From an uncultured Gammaproteobacteria bacterium (lineage in GTDB: Bacteria; Patescibacteriota; Patescibacteriia; JACPHY01), in contig CAZPCZ010000002.1 of assembly GCA_964585225.1 (NCBI GenBank), positions 1-59,418 of the forward strand: a DNA stretch of 59,418 bases, read 5' to 3'. The notes beneath the pieces were generated by a model. The model did not search any database. It was given only the letters and a program-made list of their open reading frames with translations, and was not told the origin of the DNA. Below, one piece after another: positions 15,306 through 59,418 of the stretch. Position 1 is the first letter of the stretch. Each line of letters starts with the position of its first letter. A program made the translations under genes and the position numbers.

Positions 15306-15377
15306 GCCCCCATAGCTCAATGGAAGAGCACCGGACTTCTAAGCCGTGAGATGTACGTTCGAATCGTACTGGGGGCA
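15306..15377 (+). tRNA. tRNA-Arg(TCT), atypical anticodon stem, no encoded CCA
   Basis: Acceptor GCCCCCA/TGGGGGC, D-arm GCTC/GAGC, T-arm GTACG-TTCGAAT-CGTAC, loop CT-TCT-AA; only 3 of 5 anticodon-stem pairs. Confidence 0.75.
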
Positions 15378-15421
15378 CGGGCGATGGCAGGCGGGGAACG
15401 ACGACGCAAGATAGTGCGCGT

Positions 15422-16015
15422 ATGAAGAACCCTGATCAAGCTTCTCCTTCTCCAGAACGTGGCGTTCCGGATATCGGTGGGATACGGGATACGCTCCTCG
15501 GTACACCACTCGAAGCAGTACGACGGAAATGGGAATCAATACTGAAAAGGGAAGCGGGACCTTTCCTGCAGTTTTACGTCGCATGTCCTGACGATCAGCT
15601 CCCCGCGATCGTGCAGTATCTCACGGAGCATGTTGGCGGAGCGGCAAGCGGCCAGCCTCTTCCGGAAATCGATGTACGACACGACGCTGGAATCCACAAT
15701 GCGGTGGAGGGCTTGGAGGATCGCATTGCACGGCATCCGGCAAATCGTGTGGTGGTGGTCGTTCGTGGATTTGAGCATTACGTCCATGGCTTCAGCGACG
15801 AGCCGACACGGCTGTATGCCAGCCATAATCTCAACCAAGAAATTTCGGAGTCCTACCGTCGAGAGCGCCCCCTTCAGGTACCGCCGGGGAAAAAGGTGAT
15901 CCTTATCATCCATATTGGCTACTCGCTGGGGGAAAACGTCTCCCGCACTGCGATTCAAAGTGCTCTCCGCTCACAATTCAAGGATGGCATCGTTCTCATT
16001 GACGCCCCCACATGA
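15422..16015 (+). CDS. Hypothetical protein (possibly degenerate P-loop-like fold), lower GC
   Basis: 197-aa ORF between two tRNA-Arg genes; Walker-B-like VVVVVRGFE but no Walker A. Confidence 0.65.
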   Translation: MKNPDQASPSPERGVPDIGGIRDTLLGTPLEAVRRKWESILKREAGPFLQFYVACPDDQLPAIVQYLTEHVGGAASGQPLPEIDVRHDAGIHNAVEGLEDRIARHPANRVVVVVRGFEHYVHGFSDEPTRLYASHNLNQEISESYRRERPLQVPPGKKVILIIHIGYSLGENVSRTAIQSALRSQFKDGIVLIDAPT

Positions 16016-16115
16016 TGCGGTTCGGTCGTCATGGAACTCGCGGAGCACCAATTCCTCTGCGCACTACACGATGGGACCAATGAATCACCAACGCTCCCGA
16101 TGTTGCTCGGAAGCA

Positions 16116-16144
16116 TTGACTCCGTGTTCCTGGACCGCTATGCT
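16116..16144 (+). promoter_or_regulatory. sigma70-like promoter for tRNA-Arg copy 2
   Basis: TTGACT-17-TATGCT. Confidence 0.6.
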
Positions 16145-16157
16145 ACGGTGTCAACGA

Positions 16158-16234
16158 GCCCCGGTAGCTCAACTGGATAGAGCGGCGGCGTTCTAAGCCG
16201 ACGGCTGGAGGTTCGATCCCCTCCCGGGGCACCA
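16158..16234 (+). tRNA. tRNA-Arg(TCT)
   Basis: GCCCCGG/CCGGGGC acceptor, anticodon TCT, TTCGATC T-loop, encoded CCA. Confidence 0.9.
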
Positions 16235-16379
16235 AGACAACATCCTCAGAGTCCCCTCGAACTGGTCACGCCCCCGATACACATCGAGGACGTGCACGCA
16301 TCCTGCAGAGGTTGCCGCTCACAGCCGAAGTTGCTACAATTTGAGAAAGGAATTTCACGATGGCCGCTCCAACTCGGCT

Positions 16380-16871
16380 ATGACTTGGGCCTACATTGCT
16401 GGATTCTTTGATGGAGAAGGGAGTCTGTCCCGTAACGGTAATGGCTTCCGTGTCACTATTCCGCAAACAAATGTCGAGGTCCTCTGTACCATTCAACGAT
16501 TTGCTGGATACGGGAACGTCATTCACGTAACGAAACGACAACGCCATTGGAAAGAAAGTTGGATATACGCCGTCGCCAAGCAGGAAGAGGTGCTCCACTT
16601 TCTCCACAGAATCGGACCGTATCTCGTGGTCAAACGTAATCTGGTGAAGGCGGCACTGCCGGGCATTGCCCAAATGGTTGCTCAATACCGCCACGAGATG
16701 GTGCGTCGCAAACAACAATTCCGTACCGCAGTTTCGCTCCGGAAACGTGGATGGACATACCGCGATATTGGAAGGCGTCTGGGGATGGATTGGAGTTGGA
16801 CACGCCGGATCATCATGAAGGCTCCTACGAACCCGGACGGAACCACTACGGTGGGCGTAGCTCAATGGTAG
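16380..16871 (+). CDS. LAGLIDADG homing endonuclease with C-terminal HTH
   Basis: WAYIAGFFDGEGS motif; C-terminal RKRGWTYRDIGRRLGMDWSWTRRII; 3' end overlaps tRNA-His. An upstream TTG at 16341 is in frame. Confidence 0.9.
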   Translation: MTWAYIAGFFDGEGSLSRNGNGFRVTIPQTNVEVLCTIQRFAGYGNVIHVTKRQRHWKESWIYAVAKQEEVLHFLHRIGPYLVVKRNLVKAALPGIAQMVAQYRHEMVRRKQQFRTAVSLRKRGWTYRDIGRRLGMDWSWTRRIIMKAPTNPDGTTTVGVAQW

Positions 16872-16925
16872 AGCACTGGTTTGTGGAGCCAGTGGCTGCG
16901 GGTTCGATCCCCGTCGCCCACCCCA
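16850..16925 (+). tRNA. tRNA-His(GTG)
   Basis: G-1, GTGGGCG/CGCCCAC acceptor, CTGGT-TT-GTG-GA-GCCAG, C73 + CCA. Confidence 0.93.
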
Positions 16926-55843: not shown

Positions 55844-56326
55844 TGACGAATTTCTAATTTCTAATCAAATCCCAATGCCCAATGATCAAATGACCAAAAC
55901 GAAGTTCGATCTCGAGGAGCGAACAGCGAGATTCGGCGAAGAGGTCATCCGCTTTGCGAAGAAGATACCAGAGAACGCGGTCACGAGACCACTCATTTCA
56001 CAGTGTGTCCGAGCTGGGACGAGCATCGGCGCGAACTACTGCGAGGCCGACGATGCGGAATCGCGAAAGGATTTCGTCCACAAGATTGGCATCTGCAAGA
56101 AGGAGGCGCGCGAGTGCAAGCACTGGCTCCGCATGATCGTCGTGGCAGTCCCGGAACTCACTCATGGGGCGCGGGTGCTCTGGCAAGAGGCGAAGGAGCT
56201 CAACCTCATTTTCAACGCGATCACTCGCTCGAGTCGCGACCACGAACGGTAGGAGCGCTCAATCGTCATTGGTGCTTGGGCATTACGTCATTGATTAGAA
56301 ATTAGGAATTAGAAATTAGGAATTCG
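55833..56326 (+). mobile_element. Candidate element: four-helix-bundle gene bracketed by inverted heptamer arrays
   Basis: Left arm CGAATTCCTAATGACGAATTTCTAATTTCTAATCAA... (55833-55895) is an imperfect inverse of right arm ...TTGATTAGAAATTAGGAATTAGAAATTAGGAATTCG (56263-56326). Confidence 0.6.
55875..56252 (+). CDS. Four helix bundle protein (23S-IVS/Avd-like family)
   Basis: FDLEERTARF, QCVRAGTSIGANYCEAD.AESRKDF.HK..I..KE..E..HWL. Confidence 0.92.
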   Translation: MPNDQMTKTKFDLEERTARFGEEVIRFAKKIPENAVTRPLISQCVRAGTSIGANYCEADDAESRKDFVHKIGICKKEARECKHWLRMIVVAVPELTHGARVLWQEAKELNLIFNAITRSSRDHER

Positions 56327-56336
56327 GTTATTTTCT

Positions 56337-56504
56337 ATGCGCACTCTCTTCTCCCTGGTCACACTCAGTGGCGTCTGGCTCTTCGCCTCGCCCTTCGTCC
56401 TGGGTTATCTTGGTGTGGCGCGCGGCAACGCGCTCCTCCTCGGCCTCATCCTCACGATCATTGGGATCATGGGGATCGCCGGGACCGTTCAACCGAAACG
56501 GTAG
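56337..56504 (+). CDS. Small SPW-repeat membrane protein
   Basis: Manual translation MRTLFSLVTLSGVWLFASPFVLGYLGVARGNALLLGLILTIIGIMGIAGTVQPKR*. Confidence 0.7.
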   Translation: MRTLFSLVTLSGVWLFASPFVLGYLGVARGNALLLGLILTIIGIMGIAGTVQPKR

Positions 56505-56574
56505 CTGCGCCCTCCACAAAACCACGCCGTTCGCCATTATAGGCGGCATACGGTATACTCCAAATTGTCCATCT

Positions 56575-56853
56575 ATGAACCGCGTCACACAGAAATCGAA
56601 CGTGCGAAGTGTACGACGCACCCGACGCACTCACGCGCATCATGAGCTCCCGAAGAACCCGTGGGAGCCGCTGCCGATGGAACGGCGCCTCCTCGCGGAT
56701 GCAATCGAACGAACGCGGGGCATTCTCCGCAGCAGTCGCACTGATCCGGTGGCATGGCAGCGACGCATCCGCTCGTTAGATACTCGGCGACTCCGAGAGC
56801 AGGATCGTCTGTGGGCCAAACTCAAAAAACAGCGACGGACGAAGCGTCCGTAA
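56575..56853 (+). CDS. Putative antitoxin of the PIN toxin
   Basis: RGILRSSRTDPVAWQRRIR motif; 6 nt upstream of the PIN gene; TATACT upstream. Confidence 0.6.
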   Translation: MNRVTQKSNVRSVRRTRRTHAHHELPKNPWEPLPMERRLLADAIERTRGILRSSRTDPVAWQRRIRSLDTRRLREQDRLWAKLKKQRRTKRP

Positions 56854-56859
56854 TCACGC

Positions 56860-57267
56860 ATGTCAACGCAGGTACTCTTGGACACCAACATCGTCATCGA
56901 GCATCTACGGGACGATCCGATGGTCGCCCCGTTCTTCGATGCGATCGGCCGCGGCACGCTGGTGCCCGCAGTATCGACCATCACGGAGTTCGAACTGCTC
57001 CGGTATCCCGACCTCATCGACACCCACGAAATTGTGATCCTCCGCCTCCTCAACGACTTCCGAATACATACGGTTGGCAGGAGGACGGCACAAATTGCCG
57101 CACTCCTCTACCGACGGTACCGCGGAAAAACCAACGACCTTCTCATCGCTGCGACAGCGATTGAGCACAGCGTCCCGCTCCTCACGAGGAACATTCGGGA
57201 CTTTCGGAAGATTCAAGAGCTCAAGCTCCTCGCGGAACCACCTATTAATCCTACGGAGCACGTCTAA
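56860..57267 (+). CDS. PIN domain (VapC) toxin
   Basis: VLLDTNIVI, STITEFEL, NDLLIAATA, LLTRNIRDF. Confidence 0.92.
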   Translation: MSTQVLLDTNIVIEHLRDDPMVAPFFDAIGRGTLVPAVSTITEFELLRYPDLIDTHEIVILRLLNDFRIHTVGRRTAQIAALLYRRYRGKTNDLLIAATAIEHSVPLLTRNIRDFRKIQELKLLAEPPINPTEHV

Positions 57268-57298
57268 TTGAAATCCGTAAAATCTCACCGTAATGGAC

Positions 57299-57330
57299 AG
57301 TAAAAGTGGCTCAAAGGAGCCACTTTTACT
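57299..57330. terminator. Bidirectional intrinsic terminator
   Basis: AGTAAAAGTGGCTC-aaag-GAGCCACTTTTACT perfect 14-bp stem. Confidence 0.85.
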
Positions 57331-57339
57331 TATTGGTGC

Positions 57340-57368
57340 TTGACAGAATTGACAGAGTATGCTATGGT
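57340..57368 (+). promoter_or_regulatory. sigma70-like promoter with extended -10
   Basis: TTGACA-17-TATGGT preceded by TGC. Confidence 0.7.
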
Positions 57369-57374
57369 GGTTTT

Positions 57375-57760
57375 GTTGATACTCGTTCGTGCCACACGCT
57401 CTTCACCAACCCACGGAGGAGAGAGCCCGAGGTGGCCGGGTCATGCGCCACCGCACCACGTGTTTCATGGTGCCAATTTCAGAAAATCCTGATCCCCGCC
57501 GAACTCTCTCCCCACAAGGAGGGAGTTTGGTCGTTCTCATCGTATCTCCACCCGGGTTCCAGGGGGCCGCGCCTTCGTTCGCAAGAATGATTGCCTCTGG
57601 AGCCCGGGTTGGGATGCGAAGCCAAAGAGTGACGCGGTCTGCACCACAGCGTCGTCCTCCCACCCGAGCGCCGGATCCTCAAGTGGGATTCGGTGCTCAG
57701 GTGGGAGTCGCACCTTCAACCCACAACTGCCCGAGGCAAGGCCTCGGGGGAAAGGAGCGC
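57375..57760 (+). ncRNA. Putative long structured leader RNA
   Basis: About 390 nt with long hairpins at ~57500-57530, 57548-57613, 57660-57702, 57730-57750. Confidence 0.35.
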
Positions 57761-57762
57761 AG

Positions 57763-58188
57763 ATGCATCTGCTCAATGCGTTCTCCCTCAACATGCTCGG
57801 CGGATTTCCGGCCGTCGTGCGCGTGGAGGAGATTTCGCTCGAAAAGGCGCGGCACCTCGCGCGGGGCATCTGCTCCGCGTGCGGCGGAACGCCCGATCCC
57901 CAACACCGCGGCCTGTCCATCGAGGACGCGGGGGCATGGGGCGGGCAGAGCGGCTGCGGTGATCTCCACCGCTTCGAGCCGCTCGCCTCCGCCGTCGGCC
58001 ACACCGACACGGCCGCGGTGTTCGCGGACGTACTCGGCGTGCCGGTGCCAGCCGCGCGAGTGACCGTGTCGCTGAAGCAAGGCGACGCGGCGCTCGTAGG
58101 CCAGTACCGCGGGCCGCGTCTCCCGGAGGGTGCGACACGCCTTCCGGAGGAGGCCACGATCCAGTGGCTCCTCGTCTCGGTCGAGTGA
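57763..58188 (+). CDS. DUF1874 / STIV B116-like protein with Cys/His-rich insertion
   Basis: MHLLNAFSLNML, SAVGHTDTAAVFADVLGV, GDAALVGQY.GPRLPEGATRLP; insert ICSACGG...CGDLH; SD AAAGGAG. Confidence 0.8.
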   Translation: MHLLNAFSLNMLGGFPAVVRVEEISLEKARHLARGICSACGGTPDPQHRGLSIEDAGAWGGQSGCGDLHRFEPLASAVGHTDTAAVFADVLGVPVPAARVTVSLKQGDAALVGQYRGPRLPEGATRLPEEATIQWLLVSVE

Positions 58189-58214
58189 CGACCGTTACGA
58201 AGTGGACGGACGAG

Positions 58215-58342
58215 CACCGTGCCGGGTTTTCGGGTGATACCCCGGCACGAACGACAGATCATCCAGGTCCCGACTTCGGTCGGGACTCCATCCGAGGGGT
58301 CAGAAAAATATCGGACAGCTCAGATGGGGATTGAACTTTTCA
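58215..58342. repeat. Structured ~130-nt intergenic element, copy 1
   Basis: Homologous to 59078-59213; multi-stem with possible pseudoknot. Confidence 0.9.
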
Positions 58343-58479
58343 ACCGACAATCCGACCCTGGTGGCTGATCCCACAGCGAACCACGGGGCAAGTATTGTGC
58401 AGCCACCCGAGCGTGGCTCCAGAATCCTTGTCCTGTGGCATGGTGCCGCAGTGACGGACCGCGACAGCGGAAGGAGGAA

Positions 58480-59073
58480 ATGATGAAGTTCACGAAGCTC
58501 TGCGCTCGCTTCATGGGGGGGAGCACGGATGAGGAGGGCATCGGCGTCGCCCTCCGGGCCGCCTTCGGCCCGTTCGGCTCCCTCACCGAGGGAGTCGAAA
58601 CCGAGGAGCTCGCCGCAGCGATGCTGCGGTGGGTGAACGCCAAGGAGGACGAGCAGCTGGCGCTGGCCGGGGAGATCGTCCGGCTCGTCTGGTCGGCGAC
58701 GACCGACGAGCACTCGAGCGTCGAACTCGAGCGGTGGGGGCTCACCCTCCGCACCCCGACGTCGGGGACGCGGATCCGCCTCTGCCACGGAGGCGGAAAC
58801 CTCTTCGTGGAAGTGGACTTCGGACCCGAGGGGTCCGAGTCCAGGGCGGTGGAGATCCTCGCCGCTGCCGAGCGCGCGGGCGTCAGGTTCGACGCCTACG
58901 CCAAGCGGGGGCGCGTCGAGCGCGGGGACGTGCTCGACGCCCTGCGCGCGAGGGCGCGGCGCAACCTCTCACAGCTCCAGGGCCAGTGGCACGGCCGCTG
59001 GTCCAAGGAGGAGAAGGATGCGATCGTCTCCCGCGCGCGCGGGGAGGTCGCCTTCTTCGCGGGGTTGGCGTAG
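58480..59073 (+). CDS. Hypothetical protein
   Basis: SD AAGGAGG, 197 aa. Confidence 0.75.
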   Translation: MMKFTKLCARFMGGSTDEEGIGVALRAAFGPFGSLTEGVETEELAAAMLRWVNAKEDEQLALAGEIVRLVWSATTDEHSSVELERWGLTLRTPTSGTRIRLCHGGGNLFVEVDFGPEGSESRAVEILAAAERAGVRFDAYAKRGRVERGDVLDALRARARRNLSQLQGQWHGRWSKEEKDAIVSRARGEVAFFAGLA

Positions 59074-59077
59074 CACA

Positions 59078-59213
59078 CACCGTGCCGGTTTTTCGGGTGA
59101 TACCCCGGCACGGACGACAGATCACCCAGGTCCCCCGATGGACATCGGGGGGCTCCATCCGAGGACTCGAAGACGAAACACTTCGAGGGCTCAGATGGGG
59201 ATCGAACTTTTCA
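59078..59213. repeat. Structured ~135-nt intergenic element, copy 2
   Basis: Begins 4 nt after the TAG; conserved ends, variable internal stems. Confidence 0.9.
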
Positions 59214-59418
59214 CTCATGCCGTTGCCCGACAAGAAAAGGCGAGAGCCGACCTTCAACGGTCGTCGGGGAACCGCGGGACTGCAACTGTCCCCAACGGCA
59301 CCAATCTGCAGTGCGATCGCGAGATCGCAGAAAGGATCGTGATGGTCTGCAGAAGTGGGAACCATCGAGGAATAACGGCGCCTCGACGGGGATGTATAAG
59401 CAGCGCGGGAACTGGGAC

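Follow-up and report, generated by a model that had tools for sequence, protein, structure and literature searches.

What are the folded, repeated elements that lie between the genes of one operon in an uncultured bacterium of the candidate phyla radiation (CPR), and what might they do there? We examined them in a stretch of 59,418 nt (contig CAZPCZ010000002.1, assembly GCA_964585225.1, positions 1-59,418; hereafter the window) from a high-GC Candidatus Uhrbacteria-like bacterium. A first-pass annotation of the window had described two copies of an element of about 130 nt near its end, and had proposed an unrecognised structured RNA or a single-stranded DNA recombination site in a cassette-like gene array. 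We found that the two copies are members of a family of folded RNA elements without earlier description. The family is very probably a real, conserved, structured RNA of the plus strand, and it is restricted to one sub-lineage and one locus. We propose, with about even confidence and from sequence comparison, that its members are modules between cistrons that act in transcript processing, in stability and at the start of translation.

A family of folded modules at one locus

The array continues beyond the window, as had been predicted, and we traced it there by exact protein look-ups and a pattern scan of metagenome contigs. Four metagenome contigs (L001, L005, L006 and L025) are identical to the tail of the window and extend it by 370 nt (L001 and L005), 5.7 kb (L006) and 9.3 kb (L025); the array extends more than 10 kb past the window end. 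Arrays are also carried by a Candidatus Uhrbacteria contig (L029, GCA_016205885.1) and by two further lineages (L031 and L033/L034), and a Patescibacteria genome (L032) has no module.

The core module consists of a hairpin (hpB), a second hairpin (P3) and a single-stranded tail (GCACCUUCAACC). The G+C-rich hpB has the base CCCCGA...UCGGGG and a variable top, and it directly abuts P3. The base of P3 is YCCCACCCGAG...CUCAGGYGGGA with two A.C/C.A positions, again under a variable top, and the hairpin is ~19-22 bp long, roughly two helical turns. The primary sequence of both bases is conserved, and the tops vary freely. After a spacer of 2-25 nt follows the tail, with the consensus CGCACCTTCAACC (also written CGCACCUUCAACC). 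Upstream of the core, after the stop codon, lies a further hairpin, which in the window copies is stem 1 with an H-type pseudoknot and elsewhere is often a GGGGAGGGG...CCCCTCCCC hairpin with GAAYGG behind it. In a folded module, two or three hairpins form independently, the tail stays unpaired, and the 5' end does not pair with the 3' end.

We built a covariance model (R1) from 24 loop-trimmed module copies, which were used in place of a full-length MAFFT alignment that had misplaced hpB. R1 detected 36 distinct plus-strand copies at E<=1e-5 in the four lineages, and the window lineage has at least 14 core modules in ~13 kb. In the window, R1 gave exactly three plus-strand matches (57639-57721, 58266-58344 and 59129-59215, all E <= 5e-10), two of which are the cores of copy 1 (53.1 bits, E=7.6e-13) and copy 2 (43.3 bits, E=4.7e-10) of the first-pass annotation. 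In the seed alignment of 24 curated copies, where P3 was placed only by counting inwards from both ends, 87.6% of cells were paired compared with 66.9% after shuffling, 19 of the 26 pairs had changed on both sides, and the covariation score was 0.565 compared with 0.06-0.16 with slid partners. Copies from L031 and L033, which lay outside model building, were 88.1% paired compared with 74.0%, and 15 pairs had changed on both sides; alignments made by R1 lean towards that model. Two points reduce the weight of these figures as evidence for the structure: the hpB columns of the seed alignment were selected by maximal pairing, and the module copies share descent, probably with gene conversion, so that covariation counts are not independent events.

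All R1 copies sit between the array promoter and the array end. The other 57 kb of the window contained no credible match; two minus-strand matches (E=0.05-0.17) overlap tRNA genes and are explained by a T-arm-like string. These genes lie in a cluster of two tRNA-Arg(TCT) and one tRNA-His(GTG) at 15306-16925, and the three tRNA genes at 15-17 kb were the only ones called by ARAGORN and the only Rfam matches at gathering score in the window. R1 found no copy upstream of the promoter in L029, past the array end in L035, or in L032. Because L032 encodes a homolog of array gene g7 (63% identical, in an ordinary gene context) but no module, the family is limited to the sub-lineage and to the locus. 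Exact-pattern scans of IMG/VR found neither the stem-1 loop nor P3, and the 3' block of copies 1 and 2 had no match in GTDB genomes. The P3 pattern had 14 single matches in GTDB genomes, without hpB or tail and at about chance level, and the lineage itself is therefore absent from the species representatives searched with these patterns. A scan of metagenome contigs with the stem-1 loop gave nine loci, of which only L005 and L006 were genuine and the others were chance matches of 19-26 nt.

The two window copies share 81% identity across 138 nt, and the 33-nt stem-1 pattern occurs in the 59-kb window only in them, with 0 expected in shuffles. Stem 1, CCGTGCCGG/CCGGCACG(G), starts 28 nt past the stop codon of g1 in copy 1 (58217-58225/58242-58249) and 6 nt past that of g2 in copy 2 (59080-59088/59105-59113). 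Stem 2, which corresponds to hpB, has an altered sequence in which pairing is kept (58267-58286 versus 59130-59153). Stem 3, which corresponds to P3, is CTCCATCCGAG/CTCAGATGGGG in both copies (58286-58296/58319-58329 and 59153-59163/59190-59200) and is fully paired save for one C.A and one U.G position. The predicted folds include the three stems drawn in the first-pass annotation, all of which are real, and are more stable than dinucleotide shuffles (z = -3.5 and -4.7).

Within the family, the window copies are a diverged subtype, marked by the P3 base CTCCATCCGAG/CTCAGATGGGG, the tail GAACTTTTCAAC and the stem 1 and pseudoknot in front. In both of them TTTT sits 8 nt past P3, where most family members have CCTTC. 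The minus-strand string GTTCRATCCCC, which had been likened to a tRNA T-loop, is limited to these two copies, most members reading GGGATCGCACC / GGTGCGATCCC there, and the resemblance does not hold for the family. A minus-strand tRNA or T-arm remnant was likewise not recognised: neither ARAGORN nor the tRNA model made a call at the elements, and the flanks AAAAG/CCCAT are unpaired.

The stem-1 loop GGGTGAT (58232-58238; 59095-59101) can pair with ATCATCC (58258-58264) or ATCACCC (59121-59127), as had been suggested. L029 6103-6250 is the ortholog of copy 2, since the same conserved element comes after both. Its stem 1 is CCCACCGGA/TCCGGTGGG compared with CCGTGCCGG/CCGGCACGG in the window, with four pairs changed on both sides, and its loop and linker are GAGCGA/TCGCTC compared with GGGTGA/TCACCC, with two pairs changed on both sides; copy 1 adds one G.U to the pseudoknot helix. 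Overall, 92% of cells were paired in the comparison of the window with L029, compared with 27-53% when partner columns were slid. The pseudoknot helix has seven pairs, of which two changed on both sides and one to G.U, and 95% of its cells were paired in three sequences, with at most 53% in slid controls. The ortholog supports an H-type pseudoknot, in which the stem-1 loop pairs with a 3' strand and compensatory changes are seen in three sequences from two lineages. Present in 3 of >36 copies, the pseudoknot is a feature of the subtype and not of the whole family.

Searches of Rfam 15 returned no family at gathering score on the elements, in agreement with the earlier view that they are unrecognised. 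For 57200-59418, E<=10 gave only far-sub-threshold, chance-level matches, the sole one overlapping an element being mir-m107-1 (18 bits compared with a gathering score of 83), and L006 gave nothing at E<=1. The compact fold, the pseudoknot in both window copies and the G+C-rich hairpins after stop codons would suit a riboswitch, a self-cleaving ribozyme or a plain transcription terminator. However, the sub-threshold matches include no ribozyme or riboswitch, the genes that follow the modules are unrelated in function, the pseudoknot is confined to the few copies given above, and the conserved internal-loop nucleotides typical of catalytic cores are absent. A U-tract follows none of the module hairpins, whereas the array boundaries use a hairpin with a T-run. 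We regard all three as highly improbable, including the riboswitch and ribozyme that had been put forward before.

Position, tRNA genes and the transcribed strand

The first-pass annotation had placed the element after each gene. It does adjoin stop codons in two copies; across the array, the core was found between almost all genes and is anchored just before the ribosome-binding site of the next gene. The tail mostly ends 14-26 nt before the ATG, that is, 5-12 nt upstream of the next gene's Shine-Dalgarno (SD) sequence, and longer distances contain an extra inserted hairpin. Before one start codon the tail occurs alone (L029 5852-5885), and the hairpin block and the tail are therefore separable.

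Some spacers contain tRNA genes in the same orientation: tRNA-Glu and tRNA-Ala in L025, tRNA-Pro in L031 and tRNA-Glu in L035. The tRNA-Pro of L031 ends 1 nt before a module, and the tRNA-Ala of the window lineage is inserted exactly between P3 and tail. At another P3/tail position of this lineage (L006 1795-1930) we found a decayed Ala-like tRNA, which has lost its middle and kept its acceptor stem with G3.U70. The tRNA-Pro is intact only in L031 and the tRNA-Ala only in the window lineage; at the place of the tRNA-Pro, the other three lineages have remnants that keep CGGGCG...CGCCCGGACC. Further decaying tRNAs lie at L025 7375-7410, L029 11185-11310, L033 1815-1890, and L035 275-420 and 2150-2240. 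In the decayed tRNAs the middle is replaced or interrupted by small hairpins, and the acceptor stem and the following ACC are retained. The tRNA models made no call on them, and their assignment rests on direct comparison with intact orthologs.

A tRNA-like element directly follows copy 2 (Table 1) and has orthologs at L029 6252-6339 and L031 504-592. It shows a 7-8 bp acceptor-like stem, a 5-bp/7-nt arm at the T-arm position and the 3' end ...GGC-A-CCA. Over 111 nt it shares 92% identity with L029, which makes it more conserved than the flanking genes, and it was called by neither the tRNA model nor ARAGORN. The string ACCTTCAAC of the module tail recurs in one of its hairpins.

We then assessed the strand from the types of base pair. 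In the 24 seed copies, the A.C position of the P3 base is A.C in 16 and A-U in 8, with G-C in one copy outside the seed alignment, and the C.A position is C.A in 15, C-G in 7, U-A in 1 and U.G in 1. Two observations speak against an RNA of the plus strand: both P3-base mismatches would be G.U on the minus strand, and whole-module folding energies are somewhat lower there, partly as an effect of tail composition. A minus-strand RNA was considered on these grounds and rejected as the main reading on the count in the variable helices, in which changes are more nearly independent. On the plus strand these helices have 73 G.U compared with 26 A.C occurrences, or 56 compared with 23 unique contexts (p=2.6e-4). 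This excess points to RNA of the plus (mRNA) strand, in which the two A.C positions would be a conserved special feature of P3. The same reading fits the orientation of the copies with the genes, the promoter, and the full-model scores, which are higher on the plus strand everywhere but at one P3-only copy in L035.

The two A.C positions are symmetric and two pairs apart, and the P3 base with hpB could form a common operator, bound by one trans-acting RNA-binding protein or nuclease that co-regulates translation or decay of all cistrons. Phage translational repressors and the RNase III sites between T7 early genes are parallels of this kind. Such a role would agree with conserved bases under free tops, with mismatch positions limited to C.A, C-G, U-A and U.G or to A.C, A-U and G-C, with a P3 of about two turns, and with the closeness of the ribosome-binding site. 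However, a 75-nt tRNA or ~25-nt spacers can part P3 from the tail and the SD, which makes steric occlusion of the ribosome-binding site unlikely; moreover, no candidate binding protein is encoded in every array, and the conservation could stem from gene conversion. We assign the operator a low probability.

A chromosomal operon with cassette-like gene order

The features at the start of the array are collected in Table 1. The terminator-like hairpin sequence is also found in L029 (from 5159) and L031 (from 83), and the array promoter is kept in both (TTGACA/TATAGT in L029 and TTGACA/TATGGT in L031). The whole terminator-promoter-leader block of the window (57302-57545) corresponds to L029 5159-5395 and L031 83-325. 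The leader is almost invariant over ~75 nt in three lineages (GGAGGAGAGAGCCCGAGGTGGCCGGGTCATGCGCCACC...TGGTGCCAATTTCAG) and has no Rfam match; it is non-coding, because an indel breaks any reading frame, and may be a regulatory leader for the whole array. In L029 the orthologous leader hairpin bears a tail, which is followed by small open reading frames (ORFs). The P3 of module W0 is identical at 50/50 positions to the P3 at L029 6177-6226.

Table 1. Features at the start of the array in the window
Feature	Position	Strand	Parts or evidence
Terminator-like boundary before the promoter, hairpin + T-run (AAAAGTGGCTCAAAGGAGCCACTTTT)	57302-57327	+	Read from sequence
Sigma-70-type promoter, TTGACA-17-TATGGT with TG extension	57340-57368	+	10/12 matches
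Conserved structured leader of the array transcript	57411-57545	+	Three-lineage alignment, predicted hairpins
P3-like leader hairpin (CTCCACCCGGG...CCCGGGTTGGGAT) without tail	57546-57615	+	Orthologous hairpin in L029 and L031
Core module W0, upstream of g1	57639-57722	+	Weak hpB, P3 57657-57707, tail 57708-57722; R1 44.1 bits, E=2.7e-10
Array gene g1, 141 aa, STIV_B116-like/DUF1874	57763-58188	+	
Copy 1	58215-58345	+	P1 58217-58249, pseudoknot partner 58258-58264, hpB 58267-58286, P3 58286-58329, tail 58330-58345
Array gene g2, 197 aa, without family match	58480-59073	+	
Copy 2	59078-59216	+	P1 59080-59113, pseudoknot partner 59121-59127, hpB 59130-59153, P3 59153-59200, tail 59201-59216
tRNA-like element, 88 nt, directly after copy 2	59217-59304	+	Consensus fold, three lineages, 2 compensatory pairs
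Start of a further hairpin-rich non-coding spacer, running on to the next core module and g3	59305-59418	+	

No plus-strand terminator-like site was found inside the array, the scan covering 56500-59418 and the 10.8-kb L025. In L035 the array closes with its last gene, a hairpin with T5 and a promoter-like site, and then come rpiB, rpe and tkt. With a hairpin and T-run at the array boundaries and internal hairpins that lack a U-tract, the host uses ordinary terminators at the boundaries. The array is most simply read as one long transcript, presumably made from the promoter at 57340-57368.

Upstream of the array lie tig, GIY-YIG, AP endonuclease, trxB, 23S_rRNA_IVP and PIN genes. L029 is syntenic (tig, GIY-YIG, AP endonuclease, trxB, then the array), and its housekeeping flanks are 83-86% identical to those of the window. 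The array is a chromosomal operon between trxB and, in a relative, rpiB-rpe-tkt. The earlier term phage-like ORFs has the support of one DUF1874/STIV_B116 domain, in g1, which was the only match of the array proteins to Pfam and PHROGs, and a 7-kb part of the array had no blastn match to phage and plasmid records. The array proteins are ORFans and VapC/PIN toxins. For the product of g7 (L025 4540-5118; 192 aa, without Pfam domain) we found 316 homologs in Patescibacteria, 50-80% identical; most are not encoded in an array, and the named ones belong to Candidatus Uhrbacteria, Parcubacteria and Patescibacteria. The protein represents a CPR family that is widespread and uncharacterised.

The neighbouring genes g4 and g5 (L025 2130-2555 and 2819-3556) encode paralogs without family match that share the motifs W-x-GGG-x-GDG-x-D and V/S-NG-x-x-x-D/E-DWL. 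A PIN/VapC gene before the array promoter is intact in the window (56860-57267) and an uncalled remnant in L029 (4935-5150), and the array itself contains, in reverse orientation, another PIN gene (L025 6064-6453) whose partner resembles an antitoxin. Free-standing genes of the 23S_rRNA_IVP family, whose four-helix-bundle proteins are usually encoded in rRNA intervening sequences, lie near both ends of the array region (window 55875-56252, L035 6621-7253).

Gene order and gene content both differ between the related genomes, a comparison that the first-pass annotation had suggested. Protein comparison showed that the g9/g7 order is reversed in L029 and L033 relative to the window lineage and that g4/g5 are swapped in L031. 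L029 lacks g1, g2 and g3 and carries two different small ORFs in their place, and only the window lineage has a toxin-antitoxin pair in reverse orientation and a small reverse gene. Order breakpoints fall inside modules: ahead of g4, the L029 module combines an hpB like that of W3 with a downstream part like that of W4, and the window lineage has a duplication of the flank GCAACGAAGTTCTGCCCCGACC. These junctions fit recombination between repeats.

The shuffling of an array of ORFans and toxin genes, with breakpoints inside modules and a duplicated flank, would also be expected if the modules were DNA-level recombination sites, folded single-stranded or double-stranded, for the excision, insertion and reordering of cassettes, as in an integron with a non-canonical site. 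Like integron cassette arrays, this array has small, mostly orphan, co-oriented genes with toxin modules, one structured repeat per spacer and varying order and content, and the P3-base mismatches would be G.T on the bottom strand, which is also the folded strand of attC sites. Unlike attC, the modules have no R''/R' core sites: no RYYYAAC/GTTRRRY pair 40-150 nt apart was found on either strand in 11.5 kb of array (0.8 expected in shuffles), which extends the earlier statement that such sites are absent. Two or three separate hairpins with an unpaired tail take the place of the single long imperfect, bulged hairpin of attC, and the repeat is anchored to the downstream start and not to the upstream stop. 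No integrase or recombinase adjoins the array among the genes called ~8 kb upstream (L001, L029) and ~9 kb downstream (L035: rpiB, rpe, tkt), the remaining 50 kb of the window not having been scanned. In addition, the asymmetry between strands in the variable helices speaks for the mRNA strand, reverse-oriented array genes have no reversed module, the spacing to the SD is fixed, and ordinary homologous recombination across identical stretches of 25 nt would be enough to produce the shuffling. The recombination site that had been offered as one of the possible functions is, in our judgement, unlikely.

Two small perfect palindromes, CCGATG-GA-CATCGG and CCGCC-NNN-GGCGG, recur inside the loops of other hairpins (hpB, P3 and the upstream hairpin) and in the decayed tRNAs. 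They occur in the window at 59130-59153 and across the spacers of L025, L029, L031, L033 and L035, and look as if spread by insertion or template switching. A hairpin family of three copies that resembles repetitive extragenic palindromic (REP) sequences was found in a metagenome-assembled genome of Jatrophihabitans, an unrelated actinobacterium, with hairpins GCCTTCCCACCCGAGRTGGTCG...CGACCAYCTCAGGTGGGAAGGCG at L019 2501-2554, L022 3778-3831 and 2784-2837, and L024 7454-7508; it shares the P3-base sequence including the C.A position and has no hpB or tail.

The modules themselves could then be non-functional proliferating palindromes, similar to REPs or to miniature inverted-repeat transposable elements, or template-switch inverted repeats that pile up in the spacers of a fast-evolving locus. 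Nested palindromes, some in tRNA genes that have since decayed, module loops of 3 to 68 nt, and the same CCCACCCGAG/CTCAGGTGGG base in the REP-like Jatrophihabitans family are in line with this. However, REP-type repeats are dispersed genome-wide and the module family is confined to one operon in the sampled loci: no dispersal of the REP type or of bacterial interspersed mosaic elements was seen, with no credible copy in ~57 kb of the window or in the non-array parts of L029, L035 and L032. Orthologous copies are kept in lineages whose housekeeping flanks have diverged to the identity given above, the order and orientation of hpB, P3, tail and SD are constant, and G.U is in excess on the mRNA strand. 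Proliferating palindromes are accordingly a quite unlikely account of the family.

Known systems and a proposed role

The modules can be compared with several known systems. The RNase III processing hairpins of T7 early genes and the enterobacterial REP stabilisers are, like the modules, repeated intercistronic hairpins in polycistronic RNA. Stems of about two helical turns and conserved non-Watson-Crick positions are further likenesses, and in both cases the upstream cistron would have its 3' end shielded by the hairpins. Unlike them, the modules combine two adjacent hairpins with a conserved tail, and there is no sequence relation.

The closest layout is that of the start-associated sequences (SAS) and extended SAS (ESAS) of Cluster K mycobacteriophages, where a conserved asymmetric sequence at the start often has an inverted repeat in front. 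The SAS, 13 bp in length and 3-8 bp from the start codon, takes in the ribosome-binding region, and the ESAS is a single 17-bp imperfect inverted repeat, at a variable spacer, before about half of the SAS sites (PMC3203893). SAS have one orientation and are conserved with the downstream gene family; their function is unknown and thought to be linked to translation initiation (PMC3203893). Unlike these, the module tail is separate from the SD, and a module has two or three hairpins, 80-150 nt and a conserved mismatched base; modules share spacers with tRNAs, sit in a cellular CPR operon and have no sequence similarity to SAS/ESAS. With no DNA match to any phage record, the likeness is an analogy of layout only.

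Mitochondrial mRNA ends are defined by tRNAs and tRNA-like 't-elements' (PMC3711453, citing PMC1920247), and bacterial mRNA-tRNA co-transcripts such as secG-leuU are cut by RNase P (PMC2241853). These are the closest mechanistic parallels: in such systems tRNAs or tRNA-like folds part cistrons, and in the array two of them lie exactly at a P3/tail junction. Unlike them, the core of hpB and P3 is not tRNA-shaped and is missed by tRNA models, and here we infer the processing. To our knowledge, no tRNA punctuation has been described for a bacterial protein-coding operon of such size. The module family belongs to none of these groups, that is, SAS/ESAS, t-elements, RNase P co-transcripts, attC, REP or any Rfam family.

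The processing signal, one of the functions named by the first-pass annotation, is the one that we favour. A long array RNA would be made from the array promoter, with modules marking the cistron borders. The hairpin block would belong to the upstream cistron, which it ends and protects, and the tail would be the 5' leader of the downstream cistron; this division is proposed because a whole tRNA can separate P3 and tail and because the tail can occur alone. The P3/tail junction would be an endonucleolytic processing site, since the tRNA-Ala and the decayed Ala-like tRNA are inserted exactly there. Where a spacer holds a tRNA, the cuts at the same two places would fall to RNase P and 3'-end processing; elsewhere the P3/tail junction would be cut by another nuclease or by a tRNA-processing enzyme that acts on the P3 helix. 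As a side effect, the repeats would serve as recombination substrates that shuffle cistrons.

Two further points weigh against this proposal. The C/A/U-rich tail has an anti-SD-like CCUUC that can pair with GGAGG, but specific SD sequestration by the tail was rejected, as the cognate energy of -6.09 kcal/mol showed no excess over the control (-6.12 kcal/mol). Moreover, template switching at the DNA level is another way in which perfect palindromes can be renewed.

A bolder form of the processing model, which we consider speculative and rather unlikely, is that the array is a bacterial counterpart of organellar tRNA punctuation. The >13-kb operon of this reduced-genome bacterium would then yield one RNA, to be cut at modules, tRNAs and decaying tRNA mimics by RNase P/RNase Z or a partner nuclease, and the modules would double as integrase-free recombination joints at which cistrons could be acquired, lost or moved.

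CPR bacteria have not been cultured, their small genomes encode few regulators that can be recognised, and little is known of how their gene expression is organised. What is new in this locus is an intercistronic family of cis-acting RNA structures with unusual density, tRNA association and cassette-like dynamics: one operon combines its many core modules with a pseudoknot variant, a tRNA-like element, and real and decaying tRNAs. The many paralogous and orthologous copies provide a natural data set on the evolution of structured RNA repeats and on cassette shuffling without a recombinase. Should the modules prove to be signals for processing and stability, they would reveal how each cistron of a very long transcript is given its own output in such organisms, and would be a bacterial parallel to organellar tRNA punctuation.

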